The notes under the pieces were generated by a model. It ran no database searches. It was not told where the DNA came from and worked only from the letters and a program-made list of their open reading frames with translations. Positions 5,231-43,206 of a DNA stretch of 64,000 nt are shown one piece after another. The stretch's first letter is position 1; each line of letters begins with the position of its first letter. The stretch comes from a virus. Lineage: Duplodnaviria > Heunggongvirae > Uroviricota > Caudoviricetes. The translations under genes and the position numbers were made by a program. The DNA lies in IMG/VR virus record IMGVR_UViG_3300021400_000141, positions 321,354 to 385,353 of that record; one strand, given 5' to 3'.

Positions 5231-5301
5231 CTAATCATCTTGCAAGATTCTAAAAAATATATTATATTTGACAACGAAATAGTTATCAAATAGAGGATAC
5301 A

Positions 5302-5478
5302 ATGAAAAGCATTTACGATATCAAGTCCACTGGCAAATTCGTTCCTACACAGACATTCCGTGAAAAGAAGGCGGGTGTCAACCTTGGTCGCATGGAAAGT
5401 TCCATGAAGAAGCTGAACAAGGGACTGGCTAAGATGGCAAAGGAAAGGCATGAAGCCCGTTCAAAGAAGGGGGCATAA
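5302..5478 (+). CDS. small basic protein (58 aa)
   Basis: below the ORF-track cutoff; RBS agaggat then ATG; its stop overlaps the next ATG (taATG). Confidence 0.4.
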   Translation: MKSIYDIKSTGKFVPTQTFREKKAGVNLGRMESSMKKLNKGLAKMAKERHEARSKKGA

Positions 5479-8924: not shown

Positions 8925-8954
8925 CTTGACAAGACGGATTTAATATGCTATATT
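8925..8954 (+). promoter_or_regulatory. sigma70-type promoter (TTGACA, 18 nt, TATATT)
   Basis: cTTGACAagacggatttaatatgcTATATTg upstream of queC. Confidence 0.5.
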
Positions 8955-8985
8955 GATGAAAAACAACATCAACAAAAGGTCTCAT

Positions 8986-9933
8986 ATGACAAAAGCAAAA
9001 AACACCAGAACTCTCAAAACGCTTAAACATATCGCTGACAACTTCGGGAAGGATAAGCGCAAGTCTGAAAAGAAGGAACATCTTCTTGACAAGATTATGG
9101 CCAAGAAGGAGGAAGAACTTGTGGATGTTTTGGACGAAGGCGAGTCTCCGATGGAAGACGTTATGCCCGAAAAGGAAGCTGAACCCGCACATGAAGTTGC
9201 CCCTAAGCCGCTTGACGTAAGGCCGATTACCAAGAAATTTGACGGGATTAAGCAGAATGTTGTTGTTTTCAGTGGTGGCTTTGACAGCACCTTGATTTTG
9301 GTTGACCTGCTTGAAAAGGGCATTAAACCCAGGTTGCTTACTTTCCAGTGCAGACAGTTTGGTGAAAACCGTCATTTCACTTCTGAAATTGCAGCCCAGG
9401 AAAAAATCCTCGAATATCTCGCCAAGAAGTACGACTACGAGCCGAACCGTGATTACATGAAGCTTGAAGGCGACATGATTGGTTGGACTGGTGCTGAACC
9501 GTCCCTGTTCCAGCAGCCATTTATGCTTTCGATGGTTTCTATGGGTGGCCGTAACAACGCTTGCTACCACTTCGGATATCATCGTGGCGACGATTTCTGG
9601 CACAGTTCTCACAATATACTTGCCGCACAGGAACACCTGCTTGCAGTGGCCGGCCAGAAGAACATCATGTTCAGCTTCCCCCTGCAGTTCTTGACCAAGG
9701 CTGACATTATCCGTAACCTGAACCATTACCACTTCCCGACCGAACTCTGCACTTTCTGCTATTCGCCGACCTACAAGGGACGTTGCGGACATTGCGTTGC
9801 TTGCCAGACGTACGAAAAGGCGATGTCCGAAATTGTGCATCTGTCTGGAACCTATGAAGGAATGTCCAACCAGTTGTACTATCCTGATGGGTTCATCGAA
9901 CAGACGAAGCACCGTTCAATGTGGGATGATTAA
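8986..9933 (+). CDS. queC: 7-cyano-7-deazaguanine synthase QueC-like (PP-loop ATPase) with a K/E-rich N-terminal extension
   Basis: PP-loop VVVFSGGFDSTLIL; C-terminal Zn site CGHCVACQ; start set at the ATG after aaaagg because the upstream TTG/ATG lies inside the promoter -10 region. Confidence 0.75.
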   Translation: MTKAKNTRTLKTLKHIADNFGKDKRKSEKKEHLLDKIMAKKEEELVDVLDEGESPMEDVMPEKEAEPAHEVAPKPLDVRPITKKFDGIKQNVVVFSGGFDSTLILVDLLEKGIKPRLLTFQCRQFGENRHFTSEIAAQEKILEYLAKKYDYEPNRDYMKLEGDMIGWTGAEPSLFQQPFMLSMVSMGGRNNACYHFGYHRGDDFWHSSHNILAAQEHLLAVAGQKNIMFSFPLQFLTKADIIRNLNHYHFPTELCTFCYSPTYKGRCGHCVACQTYEKAMSEIVHLSGTYEGMSNQLYYPDGFIEQTKHRSMWDD

Positions 9934-9951: not shown

Positions 9952-10914
9952 ATGGAAAAGAAACTAAATACATATACAAACGGAAACCACAAGGTGACCA
10001 TCTATTCCGATGGCACCAAAATCAAAGAAACAATCGACCCCAAGGCCGACCATTTCACTTATGATTTTCCAGAGAACTTCGACATTAAAATCACCGACCA
10101 GTGCGATGGCGGTTGCGTATATTGTCACGAAAACTCCACTGTGAATGGAAAGCATGGAGACCTTCGTGCTTTGGAACCGATGATTGCAACCCTGCATGCT
10201 GGTACGGAATGCGCTGTGGGCGGGGGCAACGCATTGGCTCACCCTGACCTCGTATGGTTCCTAGAACGCTTGAAGGAACAGGGTGTCATTGCGAACATCA
10301 CCATCAACCAGCGTCACCTGAGACCGTACAAGGACCTCATCTGCAAGATTGTAGGTGAAGGCCTTGTTCACGGAATTGGCATTTCGCTGACCGATGCAAG
10401 CAACAAGGACGACTTTGCGTTTATCGACACTCTCGGAAACAATGTTGTCATCCACACGATTGCGGGCATCCTTTCGGAAAACGATGTTGCCCCCCTGTTT
10501 GGCCGCAAGATTCTTATCCTTGGCTACAAGGACTTGCGTCGTGGTCACACTTTGCTCGAAAAGCAGTCCGAAGAAATCAAGGCGAACATCAAGTGGTTGC
10601 AGAGCCTGTTGGTACGGATTGGTTCAACCAATATCAATCCGTTCAAGGTAATCTCGTTTGACTGCCTCGGTATCGAACAGCTTAACCCGAAGGCGTTGCT
10701 CAACATTTCCGACGCCCGTTATGATACCCTGTTCCAGGGTTCTGACACGGATGTTATGGACGCTGACGGAAACATTGCCTGTGCGACAATGTACATCGAC
10801 GTTCCCAACATGCAGGTTGCCCGTATGAGCACAGCCGCTTTGGACAAGCGTTATCCGTTCACTGGAAAAGAAAACATTCACGACCTTCTTCAGATTACTA
10901 CACAAGGATGGTAA
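9952..10914 (+). CDS. radical SAM protein, QueE-like (7-carboxy-7-deazaguanine synthase family)
   Basis: CDGGCVYC (Cx3Cx2C) followed by a GGGNALAHP segment resembling QueE SGGNP; longer than typical QueE. Confidence 0.5.
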   Translation: MEKKLNTYTNGNHKVTIYSDGTKIKETIDPKADHFTYDFPENFDIKITDQCDGGCVYCHENSTVNGKHGDLRALEPMIATLHAGTECAVGGGNALAHPDLVWFLERLKEQGVIANITINQRHLRPYKDLICKIVGEGLVHGIGISLTDASNKDDFAFIDTLGNNVVIHTIAGILSENDVAPLFGRKILILGYKDLRRGHTLLEKQSEEIKANIKWLQSLLVRIGSTNINPFKVISFDCLGIEQLNPKALLNISDARYDTLFQGSDTDVMDADGNIACATMYIDVPNMQVARMSTAALDKRYPFTGKENIHDLLQITTQGW

Positions 10915-12089: not shown

Positions 12090-12827
12090 ATGAAGAAAAT
12101 TCTATTCGTATTATTGTTCTTGTTCTCGATGGCATCCGCTATCGAGATACCGCCGACACCGAAAAACACATTTGTGTACGACGGTGCTGGCATCATGTCC
12201 GCAAACGAGGTGTACCAGTTCAATGCAATCGCCGCTGACCTTGCAAAGAACGCAAACTTCGGTCTTGCCTTGGCCACATTCAAGTCGATTGACGGTCAGG
12301 ACCCCGTTGAATTCAGTTTGAAGGTTGCCCAGAAGTGGGCGATTTGCAGCAAGGATTCCAACGAGGGTGTCCTAATCTATGTCGTAATGGAGCCGCACCT
12401 GAGAGGCGTGCAGGTTGGCTACGGTTCGGAAGGCTATCTTCCCGATGTCCTTGTGGAACACATGCAGGAAGTCTCTCTTATCCCCGCATTGCAACAGGGT
12501 AAGGGAGGTCAGGGTGCCATCAAGCTTGCCAGCATGATTGCACAGAAGGTGCAGGAAGAGAAGAAGATTGCTCTGTCTGCAACACTCGATACGGCACAGC
12601 TCGCTCCTGCCGAAGGAGACCATCTCAAAGGGTGGCAGAAGGGTCTGATTATCTTCATTATCATCGCAGTTTTCATCCTGTTGGGCATCATCGAGGCGGT
12701 CACCGACATTCCGTGTTTGAGTGGTTTGCTTCTCATTCTTTCCTGCCTTGGTAAAGGCGGTGGAGGTGGTGGCCGTGGTTTCGGTGGAGGCGGATTCGGC
12801 GGTGGCGGAAGTCACGGTGGCTGGTAG
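12090..12827 (+). CDS. TPM-domain (YgcG-like) membrane protein
   Basis: signal peptide, TPM-like domain, TM helix GLIIFIIIAVFILLGII, Gly-rich C-terminus GGGGGGRGFGGGGFGGGGSHGGW. Confidence 0.6.
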   Translation: MKKILFVLLFLFSMASAIEIPPTPKNTFVYDGAGIMSANEVYQFNAIAADLAKNANFGLALATFKSIDGQDPVEFSLKVAQKWAICSKDSNEGVLIYVVMEPHLRGVQVGYGSEGYLPDVLVEHMQEVSLIPALQQGKGGQGAIKLASMIAQKVQEEKKIALSATLDTAQLAPAEGDHLKGWQKGLIIFIIIAVFILLGIIEAVTDIPCLSGLLLILSCLGKGGGGGGRGFGGGGFGGGGSHGGW

Positions 12828-12893: not shown

Positions 12894-13490
12894 ATGTCTA
12901 CGGGCAAAATCATCCTTATCGTTCTCGCTGTTCTCGCATTCATCGGCGGAGCAACGCTTATCGGACAGTTCAACGGCATCCGCACCCTTGAAAACGGTGT
13001 GCAGATGAGCTGGGCCAATGTCGAAAACCAGTATCAGCGTCGTTACGACCTTATCCCGAACATCGTCGAATCGGTGAAGGGTGAGGCAAACTTTGAAAAG
13101 AGCACGCTCACCGAAGTCATCGAAGCACGCAGCCGCATGGGTGGCGTGATGAAGATGGATGAAAGCATGCTTGGCGACGAACGTGCAATGAAGCGCTTCC
13201 AGGAAGCTCAGAACAGCCTCGGTGGTGCATTGCAGCGTCTCATGATGCTTACTGAAAACTATCCCAACTTGAAGGCTAATGCCGCTTTCCGAGACTTGCG
13301 TGTTGAACTTGAAGGATGCGAAAACCGTATCGCCGAAGCAAGGCGTCAGTTCAACAAGTCTGTCAACGACTTGAACAACAAGGTAAGAACTTTCCCTGGC
13401 GTTCTCGTTGCTGGTATCGCAGGCGTGACCCCGAAGGTTCCGTTCTCCGCAGTGACTGGTGCTGATGTAGCACCGACCGTGAAGTTCTAA
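12894..13490 (+). CDS. lemA: LemA family protein
   Basis: N-terminal TM helix, then QYQRRYDLIPNIVESVKG, LTEVIEARSRM and RQFNKSVNDLNNKVRTFPGVLVAGIAG, the typical LemA signature. Confidence 0.8.
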   Translation: MSTGKIILIVLAVLAFIGGATLIGQFNGIRTLENGVQMSWANVENQYQRRYDLIPNIVESVKGEANFEKSTLTEVIEARSRMGGVMKMDESMLGDERAMKRFQEAQNSLGGALQRLMMLTENYPNLKANAAFRDLRVELEGCENRIAEARRQFNKSVNDLNNKVRTFPGVLVAGIAGVTPKVPFSAVTGADVAPTVKF

Positions 13491-14047: not shown

Positions 14048-14593
14048 ATGAGTCTCATCGACAGATTGTGGGAAGGTGTATGTGAAGGTGGGCCGTCTAT
14101 CCTAGCTTGTCATGAACGGATAATCGGCGGAATGGTCTATGCCTTTAAGAAGGCGTCTGAAACTGAAATAACTTTGGACGTATATTACGGAAATGACCAC
14201 TACGATTTTGGTGTGGTGTTCAGGTCGGTTGTAAATGACAAGGAGCACTCCCCGTGTGTGACCATGAAGTACCCACCGAAGGAAAAATACGAGTTCATCC
14301 ATGTTCAGGATGCTGTTGGAATGATTGGAACATCATTGCTTGGTGACTACAAGGAATGGAGTGATGATTCCATTAAACAGTGGGTTGAAAGCATGATTGA
14401 TGAGTACGGGAAGCTTGCCTCTTGGAGAATATGGGTTTCCAAGAAGTTCAAGGAACTGGAATCATCCCTGCTTGAACCTGACTGGAATATCGTAGCGGCA
14501 ATCACTAAGGAGATAAAAGCTCATTCCGACCTGATATTCAAACATGGACATGTCACATGTGAGGAAAGTCCCGAAGACGAGAGAGAGGGATAA
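14048..14593 (+). CDS. hypothetical protein immediately upstream of cas3
   Basis: RBS ggaggt; its stop lies 4 nt before the cas3 ATG, so probably co-transcribed. Confidence 0.5.
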   Translation: MSLIDRLWEGVCEGGPSILACHERIIGGMVYAFKKASETEITLDVYYGNDHYDFGVVFRSVVNDKEHSPCVTMKYPPKEKYEFIHVQDAVGMIGTSLLGDYKEWSDDSIKQWVESMIDEYGKLASWRIWVSKKFKELESSLLEPDWNIVAAITKEIKAHSDLIFKHGHVTCEESPEDEREG

Positions 14594-14597
14594 AAGC

Positions 14598-16838
14598 ATG
14601 AACCCGAACGACTTATTGGCGAAAAGTGATGGCACTACATTGATAGCTCATTCCAGAGCAGTAGCTGACATGGCAAAGAGAATTGCTGAAACACTTGGCT
14701 TCGATAGTGTGTTAACCGCACTATGCTATGTGGCCGGGCTTTTGCATGATATCGGCAAAGCAATATCACCTTTTCAGGAAATACTGCGTGAAAATGAGCA
14801 TGGGCCTGGTAAATTGAGCGACGATTGCAATGCTCGTCACAGTGCAGTAAGCGGATGGTTTATGGCTAACCATGCAGCAACGTTCGATAAGATGGTTCCT
14901 GGTGTGAATGGCAGAGCTAGTGAAATCTTGTGCCGTGCCGTTACATGGCACCACAAGCCATATTTTCCTGTTGAGGAAAGTCGGTTTGCGTACGATGAAC
15001 AGTTCGATGCAGAAATCAAGTCGTTTGTTGATGCACTCGTTGATAACCTTGATTGGAGCATTAGTTCTGACGATGATTTTGATTTTTCTGGTGGAGATTT
15101 TTCCTATTTCTATACAAGAAATCTTTCTGGTAAAATCAATTCTCGAATTCATGCTGTGAGGTCGGTAGTCATTCGTGCTGACTATCTTGTAAGTGGAGGT
15201 GTTTCCGAATACTCGATAAGTAAACTTGCACCTATTGATATTGATTCTATCGCATGCCCGATTGATTTCAATGCAGAGCGATTTGTATTTCAGCGAAACG
15301 AAATTGCAAAGAAAGCAATGGAATCTGGCAAGAAAACTGTTGTGATAAATGCACCCGCAGGTTTTGGAAAAACTATTATTGGTCTGCTTGCAGGACTTCA
15401 TCGAGGTGAAAAGATTTACTGGGTTGTTCCAAGAAACGTTATTGCCGAAGAAGTGTATCGTTCTATTTCGGATTTGCTGTCGATGTTGAATGTATCGGAA
15501 ACATATTCGTTGAACATGATTTTTGGCGGCAAGGTTCAGCTTGGCCCAGAAAATGCCGACATTACAGTAACTAACATTGATGCTATCTTGCAGCCGATGG
15601 GTCAACATGGAAATATGGGTTTGCAGTGTGATATGCTGAGTGGAACAATGATATTTGACGAATATCATGAACTGGTAGGAAATAGCCCGATGTGGTCGGC
15701 ATTTCTTATCCTCATGGCTGCAAGAATGGAGGCGAACGGTAGAAATATCCTCGTTTCGGCAACACCGTTAGATATCATGTCGTGTTTGAAAGTGAACCCT
15801 GATGATGTTCTGTATCTTCCAGGTAAGAACATCCATTACCAAGCACAGCATTCAGTTCCATACCATATCGAAACTGCTGACAGCATGCCCTCCTTGGTTA
15901 GTGGAGATAGCTTCGCTATCAGCAACTGCATTTCACGTGTGCAGAAAGTACAGTGTGGAATTATGTTTCATAGCAAGTATACTGACGAAGACAAAAACGG
16001 CATCATATCCCAATTATTGAATTCGTTCGGAAAGGGAAAGACCAATGTAGTCGATGGGGTATCAGCAGGCCCGATTTTGAGCACTTCGCTTGACCTATCG
16101 TGTACACATTTGTATGAAAGTGTATGCAGTCCTATGGATTCCATGCAGCGAATTGGGCGGTGTAACCGCTTTGGAAACAAAAGTGGATGCTCGGTAACCT
16201 TCGTGACTGGAAGCGTTCCAGGTGAACGAGATTATGTGGATATGAAATTTACGACGGAGCTTCGTTCAGAATGGTGTGACACTATCCGTCGGGAATTCAA
16301 TAAAAAAGATATTACTCTTGATGAAATGTATCGTTGCTACGATAAGTTCATGGAAGAAAATGCTGCCCGCATTAAAAGGTGGATGGTTGGTCTGCAACAA
16401 GAGAGCATTAACTGCCTCGTTACAAGCTGTGCCCCATGTGTCTTTGAAGTTGCTTTGCCGAAAAAGAACAAAGGCAAAAGCGGTGGTACTATACGAAACC
16501 CAGAACCAAATATGTACTACATAGTCCCATCTGCCGATGAGAAGACCTACTATGGGCCTTTCAGTATCGACATTGCCACGGCAAACGGGCCGAAGTATGG
16601 TAGAATATTCAGACAGGTGAACAACTTAACGGAATACGAAAAGGCCAAGCAGGCATCTCCTGCTCTTGTGAACGGAACGACAGAATATCTCTCTGGCGGA
16701 ACCCGTAAGAAACGGTGGTATAAGGAGAATGCAGACAAGTTGGCTAGAAACTCGGAAAGCCCGTTTGTCGTATCTGCTAGGTACATGACATACGACTCGT
16801 TCAATGGAGTTGTATTCAACTCGAATATGGAAGACTAA
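14598..16838 (+). CDS. cas3: Cas3 HD-nuclease/helicase (no Cas2 fusion)
   Basis: N-terminal HD motifs (LIAHSRAV, LLHDIGKA); helicase Walker A INAPAGFGKT, DExH box MIFDEYHE, SAT-like LVSATPL, motif VI QRIGRCNRFG. Confidence 0.85.
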   Translation: MNPNDLLAKSDGTTLIAHSRAVADMAKRIAETLGFDSVLTALCYVAGLLHDIGKAISPFQEILRENEHGPGKLSDDCNARHSAVSGWFMANHAATFDKMVPGVNGRASEILCRAVTWHHKPYFPVEESRFAYDEQFDAEIKSFVDALVDNLDWSISSDDDFDFSGGDFSYFYTRNLSGKINSRIHAVRSVVIRADYLVSGGVSEYSISKLAPIDIDSIACPIDFNAERFVFQRNEIAKKAMESGKKTVVINAPAGFGKTIIGLLAGLHRGEKIYWVVPRNVIAEEVYRSISDLLSMLNVSETYSLNMIFGGKVQLGPENADITVTNIDAILQPMGQHGNMGLQCDMLSGTMIFDEYHELVGNSPMWSAFLILMAARMEANGRNILVSATPLDIMSCLKVNPDDVLYLPGKNIHYQAQHSVPYHIETADSMPSLVSGDSFAISNCISRVQKVQCGIMFHSKYTDEDKNGIISQLLNSFGKGKTNVVDGVSAGPILSTSLDLSCTHLYESVCSPMDSMQRIGRCNRFGNKSGCSVTFVTGSVPGERDYVDMKFTTELRSEWCDTIRREFNKKDITLDEMYRCYDKFMEENAARIKRWMVGLQQESINCLVTSCAPCVFEVALPKKNKGKSGGTIRNPEPNMYYIVPSADEKTYYGPFSIDIATANGPKYGRIFRQVNNLTEYEKAKQASPALVNGTTEYLSGGTRKKRWYKENADKLARNSESPFVVSARYMTYDSFNGVVFNSNMED

Positions 16839-22784: not shown

Positions 22785-23066
22785 ATGCTGATACGTGACA
22801 AGGACGGAAACGAGAGAATCGCATACTCCGAGGACTTCCAGGATACATCAATAACGCTGACTCCGCAGGAGTGGCAGGAACTGTGCGCTCTGCTGGAATA
22901 CCGTAAGCAGACGAAGCCGTGTGCCTTCGCCAAAGCGAACATGAAGATATACGAGAAGCTGATGACCAACCCTCCGTTATTGCGAGATGGTGTGACTGAA
23001 ATAAAGACGGAGGACACGATGGCCAATAACCAAGCAAATCAAGGAGATTCACATGAAAACAATTAG
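22785..23066 (+). CDS. hypothetical protein
   Basis: RBS aaaaagga; 93 aa. Confidence 0.45.
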   Translation: MLIRDKDGNERIAYSEDFQDTSITLTPQEWQELCALLEYRKQTKPCAFAKANMKIYEKLMTNPPLLRDGVTEIKTEDTMANNQANQGDSHENN

Positions 23067-23784
23067 AAATTCCGTATTCGAAACCAATTCATCTTCAATG
23101 CACGCAATCGTTATACCGAGGGATAGCGTGCACAACGAGACACCTGTCGATGTCTGTATGGACGGGAGCATGGATTTTAGCTCGAGAATGCTTATCGAGA
23201 GGAAGCTGCCTGACGAAAAGGCTAGCTACTGCTTTCTCATTATCATGAAATACTGGTGCGACAAGTTTACTTGTGGCAAGTGGTCTGAGAAAAAGAAGGG
23301 CTACCTGAACATTACTGATGAGGAAATCAAGCGTAATGATGAGATTATAGCAGCGTTTCGCAAGTTCATTACGTACATGAAGAAGAGTTTTAAAAGGCAC
23401 TGGGCAATCAACCTTACAATCAAGAATTACACAGTAAAATCTATGAAAAACGGAGCATACATCTCTCCGAAGGATTGGGCTACTAACGGATGCTATGGAC
23501 ATGATGTCTTAAACTCTATCCTTATGAAACGGTTGCTCGAAAGGATTGACGAGATTACCGAGCCAGATGCAGACTTGTCTGTGCTGAGAGCGGATGATAA
23601 TACATGGAATTCATTCCTGGACTTCTGTGACCTTGCTTCCTTTATTCTGGACCCGAATGCGGTTATCATCCAGCATACTGACGAGTATGACGAATATGAC
23701 CTTAAGCTTATGCAGAAGATGGTAATTGACTATGTAAAGAAAAACAAGGGCATGTGCTTCGTTGACTGGCCTGCAGGCGGCTAA
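23053..23784 (+). CDS. paralog family protein with N-terminus MKTIRxxVFETNSSSxH (member 4)
   Basis: MKTIRNSVFETNSSSMHAI; RBS caaggag. Confidence 0.6.
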   Translation: MKTIRNSVFETNSSSMHAIVIPRDSVHNETPVDVCMDGSMDFSSRMLIERKLPDEKASYCFLIIMKYWCDKFTCGKWSEKKKGYLNITDEEIKRNDEIIAAFRKFITYMKKSFKRHWAINLTIKNYTVKSMKNGAYISPKDWATNGCYGHDVLNSILMKRLLERIDEITEPDADLSVLRADDNTWNSFLDFCDLASFILDPNAVIIQHTDEYDEYDLKLMQKMVIDYVKKNKGMCFVDWPAGG

Positions 23785-23850
23785 CCTCTTGACAGCCAGT
23801 TTTAAATTTACTATATTTCAAACTAACAAACAATCAACAAAGAAGGACCT

Positions 23851-24531
23851 ATGTCTTTTATCAAAAACAAATTCCGTGCGCTGTACATGGCAGCGTTTAT
23901 CATCTTCACCGTCATCTTCACCATCATGATGCCTGACGGCCATACGGCGATGTGGTTCGCAATGCTCACCGCACTTCTGGGAACGATATCCACCGTGATG
24001 TTCGCACAGAAGAACATCTGGGCTTACGTACCCAGTTTCGTGTTCAACTTCATGTATATGTACATCTGTTGGGAAAGCCGTCTGTGGCTTGAATTTGGCG
24101 AATACATTTTCTACAACGTGACTATGGTTTATGGTGTCTACGCATGGTACAAGCAGCTCGAAAAGGACAAGACTCACGTTATCCCGAAGAGGCTGTCCCC
24201 CAAGGCGTGGGTCGCTTCCATTATTGCCACCATCATCCTTACGGTCGGCTTCGGTACATTCGATAAGTTTGTTCTGGACGGTGCAGTTCCGTACATGGAT
24301 GCGTTAAGCATCAGCTTCACTGTTATCGCCCAGATTCTCATTGTCACTTGTTACCGTGAACAGTGGTTCTTCTGGTTTGTTCTTGACGCAATTTCCATTG
24401 TTACGTTCGCACTGATTGGCGAATGGGCAATGGTTGCAATGTATGTGTGCTGGTTCATCAACACCATCTACGGATGGATTGAATGGTCTCATAACGAGAA
24501 GAAACTCGAAACGGACACCGTGGAGGATTAA
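23851..24531 (+). CDS. pnuC: nicotinamide riboside transporter PnuC
   Basis: multi-TM 226-aa protein; VYGVYAWYKQ matches the PnuC IYGWYAW signature; stop overlaps the nadR ATG. Confidence 0.75.
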   Translation: MSFIKNKFRALYMAAFIIFTVIFTIMMPDGHTAMWFAMLTALLGTISTVMFAQKNIWAYVPSFVFNFMYMYICWESRLWLEFGEYIFYNVTMVYGVYAWYKQLEKDKTHVIPKRLSPKAWVASIIATIILTVGFGTFDKFVLDGAVPYMDALSISFTVIAQILIVTCYREQWFFWFVLDAISIVTFALIGEWAMVAMYVCWFINTIYGWIEWSHNEKKLETDTVED

Positions 24532-25680
24532 ATGTTTGGCGACGTGATTAACAACATCTGCGGTGCGCCTCGTGAATACGGGGTTGTGCTCGGGTCTTTC
24601 AGCCCGATGCACACAGGTCATCTTGACCTCGTAATGGCAGCGAAGAAGCTCTGCTCTAAGGGCGCTATCATTGCCGTTTGCGGTCTTGATGGTGACCGTG
24701 GCACGAGAATCGGTCTCCCTATTGAACGCCGCTATGAAATCATCAAGAAGATGTTTGAAGGCGACCCGCTTGTACACGTCGTCATGATGAAGGATAACGA
24801 TATCGGCATCGCAGGTTACATGGACAAGTGGGCTGAATGGTTGGAAGCCCTAAGCTATAAAATAGCTGAAGTCGTGTATGGCAATGCTGATATTAGCAAG
24901 AGAAAGTGCATGAAATTGCTTCAACGCACGACTGTCTTTACTGGTGAAGAGTCGTACAGACAGGCAATCATGTCGTTGGTGATGAAGGGCCCTAATGTGT
25001 TCCAGTTGTCCAGGAAATTGAATACGATTTCTGCGACAAAGATACGAAAGCAACCGATGAAGTATTGGGACGAAATCATTGGGTATGAGTTCAAGGCTCA
25101 GTTCGCCAAGCGTGTCTTGATTATCGGTACGGCATCGGAAGGAAAGTCTACTCTCACGAAAGACCTTGCACGATATTTCGATGCGGGTTGCACCGAGGAG
25201 TATGGACACACGTATATTGCCGATGTGAATGGTGAAACCCCACATCCAGACGATACCAAGCTGACCTACGATGACTACATCCGTTTCCTTGACGAACAGT
25301 ATCGTGTCAACTCGGCAAGCTGGCATAAGGTTAACATCTGTGACAGTGACGCAATGACGACGCTCATGTATGCCAAATACTATTCGATGGATGACAGGTA
25401 TGCCATCACCGAAGAAGATTACAAGCGTATCGAAGCGCATGCAAAGTTCCTGAAGTACGATGCAATCTTTGTTCTTCCACCGAAGAAGGACAGTTGGGTG
25501 CAGGACGGCAGCAGGGATTGCCTCACCAACAGTTTCGAAGACCGTAAGAAGCAGTACCAGGTATTGATGAGCATTATCGGACAGCACTACTGCACCGAAG
25601 ATATCGTTTACCTGAACGGCACTTATCACGAGAACTTCATGAGGGCCAGAGACAAAATCAAGAGTTTGCTTTCTGACTAG
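24532..25680 (+). CDS. nadR: bifunctional NMN adenylyltransferase / ribosylnicotinamide kinase (NadR-like, no HTH)
   Basis: N-terminal HxGH nucleotidyltransferase motif GSFSPMHTGH; C-terminal Walker A GTASEGKST. Confidence 0.75.
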   Translation: MFGDVINNICGAPREYGVVLGSFSPMHTGHLDLVMAAKKLCSKGAIIAVCGLDGDRGTRIGLPIERRYEIIKKMFEGDPLVHVVMMKDNDIGIAGYMDKWAEWLEALSYKIAEVVYGNADISKRKCMKLLQRTTVFTGEESYRQAIMSLVMKGPNVFQLSRKLNTISATKIRKQPMKYWDEIIGYEFKAQFAKRVLIIGTASEGKSTLTKDLARYFDAGCTEEYGHTYIADVNGETPHPDDTKLTYDDYIRFLDEQYRVNSASWHKVNICDSDAMTTLMYAKYYSMDDRYAITEEDYKRIEAHAKFLKYDAIFVLPPKKDSWVQDGSRDCLTNSFEDRKKQYQVLMSIIGQHYCTEDIVYLNGTYHENFMRARDKIKSLLSD

Positions 25681-25692
25681 GCTGAATGGACT

Positions 25693-25767
25693 CGGGTAGT
25701 ATCCCAACTGGTAGAGGAATGGGACTTAAAATCCTTACAGGTGTGGGTTCGAATCCCACCTGCCCGA
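25693..25767 (+). tRNA. tRNA, anticodon loop cTTAAaa (anticodon UAA, Leu-type) in a short-variable-arm scaffold
   Basis: acceptor cgggtag/ctgcccg (one G-U pair), U8, D-loop with GG, T-arm gtggg-TTCGAAT-cccac, discriminator A; anticodon stem only 4 bp. Confidence 0.5.
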
Positions 25768-25786
25768 TTAAAAGTAAGGTGTAATT

Positions 25787-26980
25787 ATGATTGAGATACA
25801 GGGAAAGTTTAATACGGCCAAGGTGTTCACCGACAATATCGAGCCCGAGGCTTACACACAGTTGTTGAACATGATGTGCCAGTGCTGGGCTAAGGACATG
25901 CAGGTTCGCGTCATGCCCGACGTACATGCTGGAAAGGGGTGTACGGTTGGAACCACTATGACCATCAAGGACAAGGTTGTTCCTAACCTGGTCGGGGTGG
26001 ACATTGGGTGTGGTATGCTTGTCGCCAAGTTGAAAGACCGTTCGGTTGATTTCGACAAGTTGGACAAGGCTATCCGTGAAAGGATTCCATCTGGTAAGAG
26101 CCACCGTGAAAGCAAGCATTCGATGGCAAAGGACTTTCCTATCGAGGATATGATTGTCTACAAGGAAGGGAAGATGGAGTATACCGAGCTGTTGTCGCTT
26201 GGGTCACTCGGCGGTGGCAACCACTTCATCGAACTGGACAAGGATTCCCACGGCAATCTGTACATCGTAATCCACTCTGGTTCCCGTCATCTTGGGTTGG
26301 CAACATGCGATTACTGGCAGGGACTTGCAATCGACGAATGCAATGACCTTACGCAGCAGCGTGGGGCCATTATCGCCAAGTACAAGCGTGAGGGACGTGA
26401 AAACGAGCTTGAAGCGGCGTTGGCAAGCATCCCTCATTTCCCGCCACCGAAGGAACTGTCTTACCTCACTGGCAAGTCGTTCGACGGATATCTGCATGAC
26501 ATGGCGTTGGCACAGGAGTTTGCAACACGCAACCGCGAAGCGATGCTTGAAGAGATTGTCAGGGCGCTCCGCCTGCATGTTGTGGACAAGTTCTGCACAT
26601 TGCATAACTACATCGACTTGAAGCACATGATACTCCGCAAGGGTTCTGTATCGGCTCAGGAAGGTGAGCGTCTTATCGTTCCTTTGAACATGAGGGATGG
26701 TTCTCTTATCTGCACTGGTAAGGGAAACCCTGACTGGAACTTCTCGGCTCCTCACGGTGCAGGACGCAAGATGTCCCGTTCAAAGGCTAAGGAAAGCATC
26801 TCCCTTGAAGCGTACCAGAAGGCCATGCGTGGCATCTACACGACTTGTGTAAACAAATCTACTTTGGATGAATCCCCGATGGCATACAAGCCGTCCAAGG
26901 AAATAATCGAGAACATCAAGGATAGTTGCGATGTTGTAGATACTATCAAGCCTGTGTACAACTTCAAGGCATCTGACTGA
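25787..26980 (+). CDS. rtcB: RtcB-family RNA 3'-phosphate/2',3'-cyclic-phosphate ligase
   Basis: MPDVHAGKGCTVGT, GCGM, SLGGGNHF, HNYI and APHGAGR motifs in RtcB order. Confidence 0.9.
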   Translation: MIEIQGKFNTAKVFTDNIEPEAYTQLLNMMCQCWAKDMQVRVMPDVHAGKGCTVGTTMTIKDKVVPNLVGVDIGCGMLVAKLKDRSVDFDKLDKAIRERIPSGKSHRESKHSMAKDFPIEDMIVYKEGKMEYTELLSLGSLGGGNHFIELDKDSHGNLYIVIHSGSRHLGLATCDYWQGLAIDECNDLTQQRGAIIAKYKREGRENELEAALASIPHFPPPKELSYLTGKSFDGYLHDMALAQEFATRNREAMLEEIVRALRLHVVDKFCTLHNYIDLKHMILRKGSVSAQEGERLIVPLNMRDGSLICTGKGNPDWNFSAPHGAGRKMSRSKAKESISLEAYQKAMRGIYTTCVNKSTLDESPMAYKPSKEIIENIKDSCDVVDTIKPVYNFKASD

Positions 26981-29165: not shown

Positions 29166-29747
29166 ATGAGAAGACTGTTTATTATCAGAAAGGATTTGCA
29201 GCTGCAGCCAGGTAAGCTTGCAGCTATGGTGGCCCACTGTGCCGAAGGGTACTGGCTAAACGTATTTAAGTATCTGAGCGTAGTCGAGGACAACGAATAC
29301 GATACACTGCCAGTAGAAACTCCGAACGACCCTGATTACTGGATGCGTTATCGTCATCCTGCTGTATTTGAGGCGGCGAAAGCTGCTCACGAACGGGGTG
29401 AGAAAACCTTTAAGTTCAAGGCGGAAAACTCCCGTCCTACAAAGACGATTTCATTTGAAATCCCGAAAGAAATCTGGGATGGCTACATCAATGATATCTT
29501 CACGAAGACAATCTGCGAGGCAAAGAATCTTAACCATCTAATGAAGGTGGAAGAGGTTGCCACGGAACTTGGTCTTGTCCCGCTCGTTGACTACGGGTAT
29601 ATCGACGATGTTTGCAAGACCGATTTGACCCCAGAATTCACAGACGAGAACGGTGTGGGCCGTTGCCGTGTTGGCATCTGGTTCAAACCGCTTCCTGACG
29701 ATATCAGCCATAAGCTGAGCAAGAAGTACCAGCTTTACAAGGGGTAA
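29166..29747 (+). CDS. PTH2-type peptidyl-tRNA hydrolase-like protein
   Basis: N-terminal LFIIRKDLQLQPGKLAAMVAHCAEG resembles the PTH2 motif VRxDLxMxxGKxAAQxxHAA; longer than canonical PTH2. Confidence 0.5.
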   Translation: MRRLFIIRKDLQLQPGKLAAMVAHCAEGYWLNVFKYLSVVEDNEYDTLPVETPNDPDYWMRYRHPAVFEAAKAAHERGEKTFKFKAENSRPTKTISFEIPKEIWDGYINDIFTKTICEAKNLNHLMKVEEVATELGLVPLVDYGYIDDVCKTDLTPEFTDENGVGRCRVGIWFKPLPDDISHKLSKKYQLYKG

Positions 29748-30662: not shown

Positions 30663-30691
30663 AATATAGAAACTTAAATGCGATTTGTCAA
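30663..30691 (-). promoter_or_regulatory. sigma70-type promoter (TTGACA, 17 nt, TATATT), minus strand
   Basis: minus strand reads ctaTTGACAaatcgcatttaagtttcTATATTgtg. Confidence 0.5.
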
Positions 30692-31480: not shown

Positions 31481-32428
31481 TTATTCCACCTTGCTCATGT
31501 TGATTCCCGAGAAGTTCGGGGTGATAGTGTTGGCTTCTGAACCAGGGAACTTGCCGTTCCACTTTTCGAGACGGGCCATAGTTTCTTCATGACGCCATGC
31601 GCTCTGCTGAATTGCATAGTTGGCGGCGATAGCCTTGTTCTTTGCAATCATTGCCTTAGCTTCTGCTTCTGCGGTCACGATGGTAGCCTCAGCGTTTTTC
31701 TTGGCGATTTCAAGTTCGTTTTCAGCCTTGTTGAGAGCATTGCGGTAGGTTGCCGAGTCAGCCCTCAACTGAGCCTGTTGAGCAACGACCTTCTTTTCGT
31801 TGATTGCACGTTCGATTTCCACGTCAGCCTTTGCAGTCTTTTCCTTCTGGGTCTTAATCATCGTTTCCTTAATCTGGTTGTCGAAGTCTTTTGTCCAGTC
31901 CCAGTTGGTAATGTTGACATCCTGAATGGTAATCGGGAACTTTGCACACTTCTTTTCCATCAAAGCCTTCACTTCATCCGCAATCTTGTCGGTTTCCTTG
32001 GTAAGGTCATAGATGGAATACTTGCCGATGACAACCTTCAATGAAGTTTTCATGTTGGACTTGAAGAAGCTTTCCATAGAGCTTCTGCTATAGTTGCGGA
32101 CGAAGTTTTCGGCTTCATCTTCGTTGAACACATAAATGATGGAGGTGGAAACACCAACCGTCTGCATGTCCTTCGTGATTGCACCGTCATCGCCGACTTC
32201 GTATGTAAAGTCGTCCTTCTGCGGAGAAAGGTCGATGGTGGTGATAGACTGGATGAACGGAACCTTCAATGTGTAACCGTTGCCACGAGGAATCGTGCCC
32301 GAAATAGAGCCTGCCGTCTTGACGACACCGACTTCGGTCGGTTCCACGCAAGTGATAGAACCGAGCGCAAGGGCGAAGATTGCCACGACTGCGCAAATGA
32401 TGATGATGATTTTGGTATTACTGTTCAT
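31481..32428 (-). CDS. SPFH/band-7 domain membrane protein
   Basis: N-terminal TM helix, an EVGVVKT-type start of the SPFH domain, and a long coiled-coil Ala/Lys/Glu-rich C-terminus typical of the stomatin/HflK family. Confidence 0.6.
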   Translation of the reverse strand: MNSNTKIIIIICAVVAIFALALGSITCVEPTEVGVVKTAGSISGTIPRGNGYTLKVPFIQSITTIDLSPQKDDFTYEVGDDGAITKDMQTVGVSTSIIYVFNEDEAENFVRNYSRSSMESFFKSNMKTSLKVVIGKYSIYDLTKETDKIADEVKALMEKKCAKFPITIQDVNITNWDWTKDFDNQIKETMIKTQKEKTAKADVEIERAINEKKVVAQQAQLRADSATYRNALNKAENELEIAKKNAEATIVTAEAEAKAMIAKNKAIAANYAIQQSAWRHEETMARLEKWNGKFPGSEANTITPNFSGINMSKVE

Positions 32429-35944: not shown

Positions 35945-36257
35945 TTTTCTGCCTTGTCTTTTCTTTCTGGTATTCCCACTGTTGGAAGATTTCCTGTGGT
36001 GATTTGTGAGTGAAATTTAATTCTTTTTCCTTTTCGTCCAGTTCGAACTTGTACGCTAGGAAATGCTCGTGTTCTCGTTTCATCTGTTTGAACAGGCTGT
36101 CGGCGTTGTCTGCCATTATTTTTGCTACATGTTCCCAGAATTCGAGTTGGCTCATCGTAGGAACACCCTCTCTCAGGTACATCTTGAATGCAGCGTCGAT
36201 TTTCTCCTTGTATGAACCAAACGTGTTGGAGTATGCCTCGTTAATCTTATCTAGCAT
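35919..36257 (-). CDS. hypothetical protein
   Basis: 112 aa. Confidence 0.45.
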   Translation of the reverse strand: MLDKINEAYSNTFGSYKEKIDAAFKMYLREGVPTMSQLEFWEHVAKIMADNADSLFKQMKREHEHFLAYKFELDEKEKELNFTHKSPQEIFQQWEYQKEKTRQKNDTNRREI

Positions 36258-37057
36258 GGTTGTTCCCCCTTTGTCAACTTAATTCGTTCAATGCTGTACT
36301 TGACCTGCTCGGCAGATATTTCGCTGCCAAGGTACTGCATGCCTAATGCGACGGCACCGACAGCGGTTGTACCTGTGCCTATGAACGGGTCGAACACCAC
36401 GGTTTCCTTCTCTGGTGGAGCATACAGTTCCAACAGGGATGTCACCAGCTTGGTGCTGAATGCGGCCTTGTTGAGATTGTTCTTTCCGTCGTTGTTGGGA
36501 GCCTCGATAAAGTTGTAGAACGGGGAGTACATCTTCTGCCCAGTCGGCCTGACAGAAGACACCTTCTTGTTGGCCTTGAACGTCTTGAACTCGCCCGAGC
36601 GGGCGATGACATAGACGAACTCGCAGAGGCGTGTCGCCTTGTTCGGGGACTGGTTGTCAGGTAGCGCCGACTTCTTTTTCCATGTGATGACATCGGCGAT
36701 TGTAAACCCTTCCTGAATGATGCGGTTGAGCGCAAGGAACATCGCATTTGCGTTCTCGTTTCCGTAACTGGCGTTCCACAGGATTACACCGTTCGGTTTC
36801 AACACCTTGTCGAAACCCTTGAAACATTCCGCAACAAAGTCGCAATACTGGTCGTTGGTAAGGTTGTCGTCGTAGCCGTCGTATCTGGCGTAGGTGAACT
36901 CACCCTGCTTGGCATGAACCGTGTTTGTGTTGACCTTGGAGGAGCCCTTCTTGTTCGTGTTGTATGGAGGGGAGGTCAGGATTACATCGACGCAGCCCGC
37001 GTCCATCTCCTTCATGAGGTCCAGACAGTTCATGTTGTATATGGTATTAAATTCCAT
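36251..37057 (-). CDS. DNA methyltransferase (N6-adenine or N4-cytosine, beta class), orphan
   Basis: motif IV SPPY near the N-terminus and motif I DPFIGTGTTAVGA near the C-terminus; no adjacent endonuclease. Confidence 0.75.
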   Translation of the reverse strand: MEFNTIYNMNCLDLMKEMDAGCVDVILTSPPYNTNKKGSSKVNTNTVHAKQGEFTYARYDGYDDNLTNDQYCDFVAECFKGFDKVLKPNGVILWNASYGNENANAMFLALNRIIQEGFTIADVITWKKKSALPDNQSPNKATRLCEFVYVIARSGEFKTFKANKKVSSVRPTGQKMYSPFYNFIEAPNNDGKNNLNKAAFSTKLVTSLLELYAPPEKETVVFDPFIGTGTTAVGAVALGMQYLGSEISAEQVKYSIERIKLTKGEQPC

Positions 37058-38568: not shown

Positions 38569-38607
38569 CATCATCTGAAAAAATATAGAAAATTTAAACA
38601 ACCCCCC

Positions 38608-38636
38608 TTGACAAAGGGGGTTTAATTATCTATATT
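38608..38636 (+). promoter_or_regulatory. sigma70-type promoter with hairpin around the -35 and conserved TTTAATTATCTATATT core
   Basis: aaccccccTTGACAaagggggtttaattatcTATATTatt. Confidence 0.55.
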
Positions 38637-40087: not shown

Positions 40088-40570
40088 ATGTACATGATGA
40101 GAAGAGTACACGCTGAGCAGAGCCCAAAAGGCGGCCACATGAATGTCTGGGTAATGCAGTGGAAACACGCTGACCTCAACGAATTGATTAAAAAGGCCAG
40201 ATTCAACCTTGACCCGTTCAAGGAAGTTCCTGGTTGCTGCATGTGGGAAGACCACTCCCCTGACCAGAATAAGTTGCCAGGATGCGTGTGGCAGGGCCGT
40301 GTGGACGAGAATTTCGAATGGAACGACAGTATTGTTCACGGGATTACCCACTGCATGATTTTCAACATCTCGAAATGCTGGTACAGTTCCGTTCTGTCCC
40401 GAGAGACGAGCGATTGCGACAACGCCCTTATCCGTTTCAACTGCAAGTTTGATGATGAAGTATACCCGTCGTTCGCCACAATCAAGGAATGCGTGGACTA
40501 CCTGACAAGCCCAGAGGGTATCGGGATATGTAGCAACAGAGATATCAAACCTGTGGAGGTTGACAAATGA
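40088..40570 (+). CDS. Cys-rich hypothetical protein
   Basis: RBS aaggaaa; many Cys/His residues. Confidence 0.5.
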   Translation: MYMMRRVHAEQSPKGGHMNVWVMQWKHADLNELIKKARFNLDPFKEVPGCCMWEDHSPDQNKLPGCVWQGRVDENFEWNDSIVHGITHCMIFNISKCWYSSVLSRETSDCDNALIRFNCKFDDEVYPSFATIKECVDYLTSPEGIGICSNRDIKPVEVDK

Positions 40571-40767
40571 CAGCGTTATACATCGGTATCTACATCATCG
40601 TCGCACTCGTAATCTATCTCGCCGCACTGTTCGCATGGGCGTTTGGCTTCGGGATGGCTTATCCCTATGCCAAATGGTATCACTGGTCCAACCTCGGATG
40701 CGCATGCATTATGTTCGGATATCCCATCGCTGCAATCGCAGCAGGAATTCTAATCTTCGCTCGATAA
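40567..40767 (+). CDS. small membrane protein
   Basis: two hydrophobic helices; ATGA overlap with the previous gene. Confidence 0.45.
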   Translation: MTALYIGIYIIVALVIYLAALFAWAFGFGMAYPYAKWYHWSNLGCACIMFGYPIAAIAAGILIFAR

Positions 40768-40794
40768 AAAATCATAAAATTTACATAAACCCGC

Positions 40795-40823
40795 TTGACA
40801 AGGCGGGTTTAATTGTCTATATT
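40795..40823 (+). promoter_or_regulatory. sigma70-type promoter with hairpin around the -35
   Basis: aaacccgcTTGACAaggcgggtttaattgtcTATATTaac. Confidence 0.55.
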
Positions 40824-40859
40824 AACACATGTAGCACACAAACAAAAAAAGGAACAAAC

Positions 40860-41576
40860 ATGCTTGCATATCTCAAATGGTTATTTACCCCGAAGTCCCG
40901 TCCTGCCTATGTTTTGGACTGGTTCAACAAGAATATCGCAGTGAATCCCAAGTTGGCTCCCTTCATGGGCAGATTGAAGGTGGAAACTGCACAGGATGAA
41001 CTTCGGTTCATCGTATCATCAGGTATCTATAGCAATAAACAACTGTGGGAAGTTCATTGCACTAATGTGAAGCGTCTGTACACTCGTGCAATGGAATACC
41101 CGAATGCGAAACAGGGGGATTCCTTGATTGACAGCATCATCTATCATATTAAAGAGGTGGATGCTGCGGTAAAGTCGTTGGACAAGTATTTTCTCCGTAT
41201 TTTTGACAACTCTAATTTTAATCTGACTGACTTTGATTACAGTTCATCTACGTTTGGCCAAGTGTCTTTGTGCCCTGCTGGTGTTCTTCCTCTGATGGAG
41301 GCGACTGAAAAGGATATCAAGAGGCAGGGTAACCATTTGTACAATGATGAACTTGCTCTGAAGGCAGACCTCGGTAATTATTATAACTACATTATCAAAG
41401 AATTTTCGAAGCGGCTTAACGGTCGTAAGCCTAAGGCAAGTTCCCCTCATATTGATGTCAAGACATTTGAAGAATGGCGTATAGACAGAGACATTATTGC
41501 CAAGGCTGATGCGGAAGAAGAACGGTTGAGCAAGGCCTGTACCAAGGTTCTTGACGACATAAGTAGAGGAAAATAA
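40860..41576 (+). CDS. hypothetical protein
   Basis: start set at the ATG downstream of the promoter with RBS aaaaaggaac; the track ORF has a 100-aa spurious N-terminal extension. Confidence 0.5.
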   Translation: MLAYLKWLFTPKSRPAYVLDWFNKNIAVNPKLAPFMGRLKVETAQDELRFIVSSGIYSNKQLWEVHCTNVKRLYTRAMEYPNAKQGDSLIDSIIYHIKEVDAAVKSLDKYFLRIFDNSNFNLTDFDYSSSTFGQVSLCPAGVLPLMEATEKDIKRQGNHLYNDELALKADLGNYYNYIIKEFSKRLNGRKPKASSPHIDVKTFEEWRIDRDIIAKADAEEERLSKACTKVLDDISRGK

Positions 41577-43177: not shown

Positions 43178-43206
43178 TTGACAAGAGGGGTTTAATTATC
43201 TATATT
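43178..43206 (+). promoter_or_regulatory. sigma70-type promoter with hairpin around the -35
   Basis: aaaccccTTGACAagaggggtttaattatcTATATTatg. Confidence 0.55.

Follow-up and report, generated by a model that had tools for sequence, protein, structure and literature searches.

A pnuC-nadR gene pair of a ~420-kb rumen phage as a probable, divergent nicotinamide-riboside salvage module of the NARP3 type

Layout and expression signals of the locus

The gene pair described here lies in a 64-kb window (the whole stretch of DNA that was analysed), which is part of a 419,315-bp rumen phage contig (ENA ERZ1756080 NODE_150). Positions 23851-25680 are filled exactly by two ORFs, 23851-24531 (226 aa) and 24532-25680 (382 aa), which are co-oriented, in agreement with the original prediction of a two-gene operon made from the nucleotide sequence. 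The genes, their signals, and their 3′ neighbours are as follows.

23789..23817, + strand: promoter-like TTGACA-17-TATATT, 33 nt 5′ of the pnuC ATG (sigma-70 scan, 11/12)
23842..23847, + strand: Shine-Dalgarno-like GAAGGA 5′ of pnuC, read from the sequence
23851..24531, + strand: pnuC, 226 aa with 8 predicted helices; putative nicotinamide riboside facilitator of the Pnu family (family and structure matches)
24522..24526, + strand: GGAGG Shine-Dalgarno for nadR, within the 3′ end of pnuC, read from the sequence
24532..25680, + strand: HTH-less NadR-like bifunctional enzyme, 382 aa (Pfam, PHROG, PDB, AlphaFold, motifs)
24577-25059, + strand: NMNAT domain of the NadR-like enzyme, ~aa 16-176
25099-25677, + strand: RNK domain of the NadR-like enzyme, ~aa 190-382
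25692..25768, + strand: tRNA-Leu(UAA) (ARAGORN; Rfam 50.7 bits)
25787..26980, + strand: RtcB RNA ligase (Pfam RtcB 3e-64; phrog_1075 6e-134)

The site at 23789..23817, which presumably acts as a promoter, fits the consensus TTGACA-N7-TTTAATTAT-N-TATATT, found 13 times in the window at ≤3 mismatches versus 0 expected. Since this promoter class is generic, being common to at least 13 transcription units, it does not point to defence- or NAD-specific regulation. Shine-Dalgarno-like motifs precede 71 of the 124 window ORFs, compared with 18 ± 4 at random positions. The two genes had been predicted to overlap at the stop and start codons. Instead, the pnuC stop TAA (24529-24531) and the nadR ATG (24532-24534) abut at 24531/24532, forming the junction TAAATG with zero spacing and no base in common. 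This arrangement, together with the GGAGG located inside pnuC, makes translational coupling of pnuC and nadR plausible. The GGAGGnTTAAATG junction is the same in close relatives L009-L012; in the more distant relative L013, the two genes overlap by 8 nt.

An Rfam search for a riboswitch or other regulatory RNA 5′ of pnuC (e.g., the NAD+-II/pnuC motif), at both gathering thresholds and E ≤ 1, returned none, the tRNA being the sole match. An intrinsic terminator was sought between nadR and the tRNA gene, and none was found. The tRNA-Leu(UAA) and RtcB genes are probably on the same transcript as pnuC-nadR. They are outside the conserved two-gene module: synteny of the tRNA gene with the pair is confined to close relatives, and RtcB is missing beside pnuC-nadR in L012-L015. 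The 5′ neighbour, a 243-aa ORF at 23053-23784, was considered as a further part of the module and rejected, as it has no family matches and is found beside the pair in close relatives alone.

The PnuC transporter

The first ORF matches Pfam PF04973 (2.3e-38) and phrog_1880 (3.4e-37), and its score against the NCBIfam PnuC equivalog TIGR01528 (100.1 bits) is above the cutoff of 42.45. It also matches the Neisseria mucosa PnuC structure (PDB 4QTN) both in sequence (3.6e-14) and in predicted fold (TM 0.75). These matches bear out the original assignment of the gene as pnuC. The "IYGWYAW-type motif" on which that assignment drew is not present as written; two approximate versions are, VYGVYAW (aa 93-99) and TIYGWIEW (aa 205-212). 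The segment WFFWFVLD (aa 172-179) fits WxxW(x)3D/N, which has been described as the Pnu-family ligand motif (PMC5749112), and this motif is shared with N. mucosa PnuC, as are the REQW and C-terminal N..YG..W motifs.

Overall identity to N. mucosa PnuC is 24%. Of the four side chains that coordinate NR in that protein, three are changed in the window protein, where M92, D179, and W201 take the place of Q, N, and Y, respectively; Q171 (chain numbering) is the one identical residue. Likewise, N45, Q94, and N180, the NR-contact residues of Bas30_87, the transporter of the NARP3 system discussed below, are not kept: the aligned positions hold G, either M or a gap, and D, respectively. It should be added that D at the N180 position is permitted by WxxW(x)3D/N, and that G occupies the N45 position in N. 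mucosa PnuC also. The pocket differences run throughout the clade of gut large phages, Lak phages included.

The NadR-like enzyme

The product of the second ORF matches Pfam families PF01467 and PF13521 and phrog_3462 (4.8e-60); together with those of the first ORF, these family matches (E 1e-38 to 1e-60) are beyond chance motifs. Full-length matches were obtained to the HTH-less NadR of Lactococcus lactis (PDB 6GYE; 2e-37) and to the NARP3 enzyme Bas30_86 (PDB 9X6F, of the pair 9X6F/9X6H; 3.7e-21). The AlphaFold model of the protein (pLDDT 89.7) matches the L. lactis NadR fold with TM 0.74-0.79. Gene identity, domain architecture, and fold are established by these data, as are the catalytic motifs, which comprise HTGH (aa 27-30), ISATKIR (aa 166-172), and the Walker A sequence GTASEGKS (aa 199-206). 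The predicted architecture, an HxGH nucleotidyltransferase domain joined to a Walker-A ribosylnicotinamide kinase domain, is borne out. The predicted lack of an HTH domain is equally clear, as 15 residues precede the first Rossmann strand (aa 16) and the match to NF005988 begins at profile position 64 of 411.

Residues D271, D273, and R328 align to the Walker B and lid regions of the L. lactis enzyme. Among 48 NadR homologues (29-90% identity), 26 alignment columns are invariant, those in the kinase domain including K205, E223, D271, D325, and R328. The mutationally important residues of Bas30_86 include K10, F11, S37, E80, P84, G89, F110, S112, D115, V139, I141, E230, and D275 (PMC13464706). 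That paper names 20 residues of Bas30_86, of which 6 (F11, Y86, W90, F110, I141, and D275) are identical here and 4 more are replaced conservatively; the rest differ, often at positions variable in the family.

With both NCBIfam NadR models, the score of the protein stays under the cutoff, at 174.4 versus 341.15 for TIGR01526 and 119.3 versus 201 for NF005988. As calibration on the same models, the experimentally proven Bas30_86 falls below the first cutoff with 270.7 and exceeds the second with 253.2, and the Lak NadR scores 191 and 133. Calibrated in this way, the sub-cutoff scores indicate a divergent member of the NadR family, not an equivalog of the proteobacterial type.

Conservation of the pair and selection

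Phage lineages with identities of 97% down to 44% retain pnuC and nadR as a pair, their contigs measuring 200-475 kb. At NadR identities of 69%, 63%, 44%, and 35%, the two genes are adjacent and the flanking genes are unrelated; adjacency reaches down to ~27% NadR identity, with flanks that change completely. The pair is adjacent also in Lak megaphages and in 19 of 20 loci from MAGs or genomes, and a single relative among those examined (L035) has the adjacency broken. Purifying selection on the two genes is strong, with dN/dS of 0.04-0.10 for pnuC and 0.10-0.17 for nadR at synonymous divergence that reaches saturation. The conserved pairing and the selection on it are established features of the locus.

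The carrier phage

The carrier is a rumen phage of ~420 kb. Its phage origin is indicated by the size of the contig and of its IMG/VR relatives (175-422 kb), the coding density (90%), and the preponderance of small ORFs without a family match. Use of an alternative genetic code was considered and rejected, as all three stop codons are in use and coding density is 90%. At the DNA level, the search for similarity to known phages gave no close relative, with weak RtcB matches alone. A 764-aa Cas3-like helicase, tried as a placement marker, gave no informative matches; it lacks a Lak match, and the two phage lineages thus appear unrelated. An exact-protein lookup for the product of the ORF at 40560-41576 found nothing on record.

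The assignment of a host is ambiguous. A 93%-identical contig was binned as Bacteroidaceae, and the Lak phages of Prevotella are the closest relatives in the catalogue; the window, however, combines strong Shine-Dalgarno sites with TTGACA/TATATT promoters and is without promoter motifs of the Bacteroidota type.

Comparison with known systems

Several phage routes to NAD+ are known. NARP1 consists of Adps and Namat, and NARP2 of Nampt and Nmnat, the latter pair being of the KVP40 NadV/NatV type (Osterman et al. 2024, bioRxiv 10.1101/2024.02.11.579819). The same authors proposed that phage operons of NadR and PnuC rebuild NAD+, and the NadR-PnuC route was catalogued in gut jumbo phages (PMC11662467). 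Finally, Yan et al. (Sci Adv 2026) demonstrated the route experimentally for Bas30_86/87 and named it NARP3: the two genes, both of which are needed, restore NAD+ and rescue T7 and lambda from Sir2-HerA and DSR1 (PMC13464706). Thus, the idea put forward for this locus, that NAD+ salvage counters NAD-depleting defences, is sound and has been demonstrated in the homologous NARP3; as a concept, it had already been proposed in 2024 and proven in 2026, and a PnuC/NadR route can no longer be called a different solution awaiting discovery. With concept, mechanism, and even structures published, the locus opens no new question; it adds a divergent case to a system that is already known.

The locus shares several features with NARP3 of the T5-like Escherichia phage TrudiRoth and of Salmonella Epseptimavirus phages (PDB 9X6H/9X6F; PMC13464706). 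In both, two adjacent, co-oriented, and tightly packed phage genes encode a PnuC-family transporter and an HTH-less NMNAT-RNK enzyme with intact (H/T)xGH, ISATxIR, and Walker A motifs. The two also differ. Identity is 26-30% for NadR and 21-23% for PnuC; the gene order is pnuC-nadR here and nadR-pnuC in Bas30; HTGH replaces the TRGH of Bas30_86; and the NR contacts of Bas30_87 are not conserved. Moreover, the present module belongs to a rumen megaphage, whereas NARP3 comes from Enterobacteriaceae phages, and experiments exist for Bas30_86/87 alone. Within the phage collection, the closest sequences are those of the Lak megaphages of Prevotella (e.g., the unannotated record MK250016), with 34% identity for NadR and 33-37% for PnuC. 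These are likewise very large gut phages in which the genes are adjacent and the PnuC pocket has the pattern M/gap, Q, D, W, but their order is nadR-pnuC.

Among solved structures, the best match of the enzyme in both sequence and fold is L. lactis NadR (6GYE/6GYF/6GZO; PMC7221760), which, like the window protein, is by nature HTH-less. This bifunctional enzyme converts NR to NMN and then NAD, with measured kinetics for NR and ATP (PMC7221760). Unlike the phage protein, to which it is ~26-33% identical, it is a cellular housekeeping enzyme, and its counterpart of the insert around aa 104-135 is shorter. As regards NARP1 and NARP2, the outcome, phage-encoded rebuilding of NAD+, is the same, but NARP1 uses ADPR and nicotinamide, NARP2 uses nicotinamide and PRPP, and neither includes a transporter. 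The Pfam families of these pairs (Adps (PRPS-like) with Namat, and Nampt with Nmnat) are not found among the genes of the 64-kb window.

Proposed function and alternative explanations

In our reading, the locus is probably a NARP3-type nicotinamide-riboside salvage module. The stereotyped phage promoter would transcribe pnuC and then nadR, the two probably being translationally coupled; the expression timing in this scheme is one that we infer. PnuC in the host membrane would admit external NR by diffusion, the RNK domain would phosphorylate NR to NMN and thereby trap it in the cell, and the NMNAT domain would adenylate NMN with ATP to yield NAD+. Facilitated diffusion followed by trapping by the adjacent kinase is the mechanism described for Pnu transporters (PMC5749112). 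The net effect would be a phage-controlled NAD+ supply independent of NAD+ breakdown products and, in the absence of an HTH repressor domain, of host regulation. The most likely benefit would be the upkeep of NAD+ during infection, including under host NADase immunity of the Sir2/SIR2-HerA, DSR, and TIR/Thoeris types. The predicted chemistry, i.e., NR import and conversion through NMN to NAD+, has the support of family matches, motifs, predicted folds, synteny, and selection. We consider it highly probable, with NR specificity and both enzyme activities ascribed by homology at 21-30% identity. As to counter-defence being the main selected role, a benefit suggested by homologues at that same level of identity, our confidence falls just short of calling it probable.

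Sequence alone cannot separate counter-defence from general NAD+ supply, and there is a substantial, if somewhat smaller than even, chance that the same chemistry serves as an auxiliary metabolic module that sustains the long and costly infection of a very large phage, NADase immunity not being the driver. Such a module could possibly also feed NAD+-consuming enzymes of the phage itself or help hosts that depend on NR salvage. In line with this role, 727 phage records contain a NadR-like gene and 349 a PnuC-like gene, with many groups of hosts represented; gut jumbo phages reportedly encode complete pathways of NAD+ synthesis alongside enzymes that consume NAD+ (PMC11662467); the promoter is generic; and the closest solved relative is a housekeeping enzyme. 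Similar nadR-pnuC pairs are also present on contigs that have been placed in genomes and MAGs of gut bacteria. Those in true bacterial genomes would be ordinary salvage operons, and some of these contigs may be mis-binned phage; the bacterial assignments make a plain metabolic role just as compatible with the data. On the other hand, the counter-defence effect of the homologous module has been demonstrated (PMC13464706), and no NAD+-consuming enzyme was found within the 64-kb window of the 419-kb genome. Moreover, the two roles are not mutually exclusive.

The bacterial pairs could also suggest that the genes are a functionless passenger captured recently from a host genome. This reading is effectively refuted, and its probability negligible, given dN/dS of 0.04-0.17 up to synonymous saturation, the intact reading frames and motifs, and the persistence of the pair in diverse phage lineages. 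It is also quite improbable that the transporter, and possibly the kinase, handles another substrate, such as nicotinic acid riboside or some other nucleoside or vitamin that Pnu-family members handle, so that NR would not yield NAD+. Such a shift would accord with the replaced pocket residues (three of the four N. mucosa ligands and all three of those in Bas30_87, across the gut large-phage clade and Lak) and with the existence of non-NR members of the Pnu family, e.g., PnuT (thiamine) and PnuX (riboflavin) (PMC5749112). However, the protein passes the PnuC equivalog model and keeps the ligand motif, and its partner is in every case an RNK-NMNAT of the NadR type whose motifs are intact, not a thiamine or riboflavin kinase; gene context is the accepted predictor of Pnu substrate (PMC5749112).

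If the probable NARP3-type assignment is correct, the locus extends NARP3, so far known mainly from phages of Enterobacteriaceae, to a clade of phages from rumen and gut with sizes of 200-475 kb. With its inverted gene order and different transporter pocket, the clade should be useful for catalogues of anti-defence and auxiliary metabolic genes and when choosing divergent enzymes for testing.

A broader, and in our opinion unlikely, reading is that pnuC-nadR heads a linked anti-effector unit of ~6 kb (23.8-30.1 kb) that would restore both NAD+ and cleaved or depleted tRNAs. Besides the pair, this region holds the tRNA-Leu(UAA) gene, RtcB, and a PTH2-type peptidyl-tRNA hydrolase. If real, the unit would repair damage once abortive-infection effectors fire. 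The reading draws on a weak recurrence: in L022, an unrelated contig with 34% NadR identity, RtcB lies ~900 nt 3′ of nadR-pnuC, and NARP3 of T5-like phages is likewise situated within a tRNA cluster.

The gene pair and its products

The interval in which the original prediction placed a PnuC–NadR operon (23851–25680) is filled exactly by two co-oriented ORFs:

23851–24531, plus strand: pnuC, 226 aa, PnuC-family transporter
24532–25680, plus strand: nadR-like gene, 382 aa, with NMN adenylyltransferase (NMNAT) and ribosylnicotinamide kinase (RNK) domains

Judged by its sequence, the first ORF encodes a PnuC-family transporter, as had been predicted: it matches Pfam NMN_transporter (2.3e-38), NCBIfam TIGR01528 'nicotinamide riboside transporter PnuC' (100.1 bits; cutoff 42.45), phrog_1880 (3.4e-37) and, as the sole match of the PDB sequence search, Neisseria mucosa PnuC (4QTN, 3.6e-14). 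In the AlphaFold model, computed from a homologue alignment, the protein forms eight helices (pLDDT 80.6), and fold comparison again returns 4QTN as the only match (TM 0.75). WFFWFVLD fits the family's ligand motif, WxxW(x)3D/N. Just one of the four nicotinamide riboside (NR) ligands of N. mucosa PnuC, a Gln, is conserved; this pocket pattern is common to the whole gut large-phage clade, the Prevotella Lak megaphages included.

The second ORF combines a cytidylyltransferase-like (NMNAT) domain with AAA_28 (RNK). Its product matches phrog_3462 (4.8e-60) and, along the full length, Lactococcus lactis NadR (6GYE, 2e-37), the phage protein Bas30_86 (chain 9X6F, 3.7e-21), and the NadR proteins of E. 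coli (8X7F) and H. influenzae (1LW7). Both predicted catalytic motifs were found, the HxGH nucleotidyltransferase motif as HTGH (aa 27–30) and the Walker A of the kinase as GTASEGKS (aa 199–206); ISATKIR lies at aa 166–172. The helix-turn-helix (HTH) is indeed missing, only 15 residues preceding the first strand and the full-length NadR profile being entered at position 64 of 411. This is not a phage invention, because L. lactis NadR, the closest solved relative, also lacks an HTH; the latter is described as bifunctional, making NMN from NR and NAD from NMN, and its kinetics for NR and ATP have been measured (PMC7221760). The protein reaches neither NCBIfam NadR cutoff, and Bas30_86, its proven homologue, likewise falls below one of the two. 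The AlphaFold model, again computed from a homologue alignment (pLDDT 89.7, pTM 0.84), superimposes over both domains on the L. lactis, E. coli and H. influenzae enzymes with TM 0.69–0.79. The predicted models of both proteins are confident.

The observation behind the original prediction is real, with one detail wrong: the stop codon of pnuC (TAA, 24529–24531) does not overlap the nadR start codon (ATG, 24532–24534) but abuts it, with no base in common. Since GGAGG lies 5 nt ahead of this ATG, translational coupling of the two genes remains plausible.

Both genes are under strong purifying constraint, with dN/dS of 0.04–0.10 for pnuC (relatives at 96–82% PnuC identity) and 0.10–0.17 for nadR (relatives at 92–69% NadR identity). 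Adjacency of the two genes is retained while their surroundings change: pnuC precedes nadR, among unrelated neighbours, in relatives at 69%, 63% and 44% NadR identity, and the order is nadR then pnuC in a relative at ~35% identity, in Lak megaphages and in T5-like phages. A PnuC gene adjoins the NadR gene in 19 of 20 loci from genomes and MAGs. The selection and synteny data together exclude a functionless passenger.

Relation to NARP3 and probable role

The interpretation of the pair as an NAD+ salvage route against NADase-type defences is sound but not new: it is already in print, and has been demonstrated for a homologous system. Osterman et al. (2024, bioRxiv 10.1101/2024.02.11.579819) noted that phage NadR genes usually stand in one operon with PnuC, possibly as a further NAD+ reconstitution pathway; nadR and pnuC clusters also appear in a 2024 survey of gut jumbo phages (PMC11662467). 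Yan et al. (Sci Adv, August 2026; PMC13464706) named the pair NARP3, showed that Bas30_87 transports NR and that Bas30_86 converts it to NAD+, and solved structures 9X6H and 9X6F; rescue of T7 and lambda from Sir2-HerA and DSR1, together with NAD+ restoration, occurred only with both genes. Of the records in the phage collection, 727 carry NadR-like genes and 349 carry PnuC-like genes.

Like NARP3, the present locus has adjacent genes in a phage genome, a Pnu-family transporter and an HTH-less NMNAT+RNK enzyme with intact catalytic motifs. Identity to the proven NARP3 proteins is 26–30% for NadR and 21–23% for PnuC. Among 20 named Bas30_86 residues, six are identical and four more conservative; the three NR-contact residues of Bas30_87 correspond to G, M (or a gap) and D in the alignment. 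The locus is accordingly classed as a divergent member, predicted to work like NARP3.

The best-supported reading has three steps: external NR would diffuse into the cell via PnuC, the RNK domain would phosphorylate it to NMN and so trap it, and the NMNAT domain would adenylate NMN to NAD+. The established view of Pnu transporters is that they act by facilitated diffusion, the neighbouring kinase then trapping the substrate, and gene context serves as the accepted predictor of what they carry (PMC5749112). Since the NadR partner is invariant, a change of substrate is unlikely, though possible. The main rival keeps the same chemistry and sees the benefit not in counter-defence but in a general supply of NAD+ to a huge phage; the two roles are inseparable from sequence alone and are not mutually exclusive.

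Expression signals and transcript extent

The following features lie in the plus-strand run around the pair:

23789–23817, plus strand: promoter-like TTGACA-17-TATATT, 33 nt 5' of pnuC
25692–25768, plus strand: tRNA-Leu(UAA), 11 nt past the nadR stop codon and 18 nt ahead of rtcB
25787–26980, plus strand: RtcB RNA ligase, directly downstream of the module
29166–29747, plus strand: PTH2-type peptidyl-tRNA hydrolase (Pfam 31.5 bits; cutoff 23)

A stereotyped element, TTGACA-N7-TTTAATTAT-N-TATATT, recurs across the window, with 13 matches at up to 3 mismatches (0 expected), nearly all in intergenic gaps; the site ahead of pnuC is one copy. Examples are:

38608–38636, 43178–43206, 53130–53158, 57652–57680 and 60467–60495, plus strand: promoter-like element
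645–673 and 30663–30691, minus strand: promoter-like element

Several copies come after a G+C-rich inverted repeat, which has the -35 hexamer in its loop and a 3' arm that continues into the T-rich stretch (e.g., ccccccTTGACAAAGGGGGTTTAATT at 38602–38627); the arrangement looks like a compact terminator/promoter cassette. At the pnuC–nadR locus itself, searches for terminators and for Rfam riboswitches found none. No further plus-strand copy of the full consensus occurs between the pnuC site and the orientation flip near 30.1 kb; the transcript may therefore extend past nadR, and could take in tRNA-Leu, rtcB, a dozen or so small ORFs and the PTH2-like gene, which closes this plus-strand run.

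The order pnuC–nadR–tRNA-Leu–rtcB is kept in close relatives (contigs L009–L011 and L016). Because synteny of tRNA-Leu and RtcB is limited to such relatives, both lie outside the conserved module. In L016 the rtcB frame (4254–6386) is broken by ~920 nt, possibly through insertion of an intron, an intein or a homing endonuclease. An unrelated contig (L022; NadR 34% identical) carries RtcB (5699–6886, 46% identical) ~900 nt downstream of its nadR–pnuC pair. The tRNA-Leu(UAA) here is just 75–77 nt long, with a short variable loop, although a long variable arm is the norm for bacterial tRNA-Leu.

Phage origin and host

The source is a very large rumen phage. The same PnuC and NadR-like proteins are encoded on sheep-rumen contigs and on a 419,315-bp metagenome contig (ENA ERZ1756080 NODE_150), where the window corresponds to about 315–379 kb, and IMG/VR viral contigs of 175–422 kb encode NadR proteins 89–92% identical. 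DNA-level comparison with catalogued phages gave no close relative of the window. Coding density is 90%, all three stop codons are in use, and most ORFs are small and without family matches.

Host signals conflict. Contig L016, 93% identical, has been binned into a Bacteroidaceae MAG, and for both nadR and pnuC the closest catalogued relatives are those of Prevotella Lak phages. On the other side, Shine-Dalgarno-like motifs precede 71 of 124 ORFs (18 +/- 4 expected), promoters are of the TTGACA/TATATT type, and no Bacteroidota-type promoter motif was found in the window's intergenic gaps; such strong Shine-Dalgarno use and apparent sigma-70-type promoters argue against a Bacteroidota host.

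Other genes of the window

7017–8270: UDP-galactopyranose-mutase/amine-oxidase-like flavoprotein (phrog_9677, 1e-97)
8953–9933: QueC-like protein
9952–10914: radical-SAM protein
12090–12827: TPM-phosphatase-domain protein
12894–13490: LemA-family protein
14544–16838: Cas3-like helicase-nuclease, 764 aa
19967–21214, minus strand: full-length ClpX-like AAA+ unfoldase with an N-terminal C4 zinc finger, alone among plus-strand genes
31481–32428, minus strand: Band_7/SPFH-domain protein
36251–37057, minus strand: N6/N4 DNA methyltransferase

The flavoprotein, QueC-like and radical-SAM genes may together serve 7-deazaguanine-type modification of nucleotides or DNA. The Cas3-like protein combines HD nuclease with DEAD/ResIII helicase domains and weakly matches Cas3_HD and a Cas3-like C-terminal domain; among the catalogued phages it has next to no relatives. 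The SPFH gene lies ~6 kb from the pnuC–nadR module; in the T5-like phage 'bastian' (L003, 1286–2229), two SPFH/band-7 genes and several tRNAs stand directly beside the NARP3 genes, which may be coincidence or a recurring neighbourhood.
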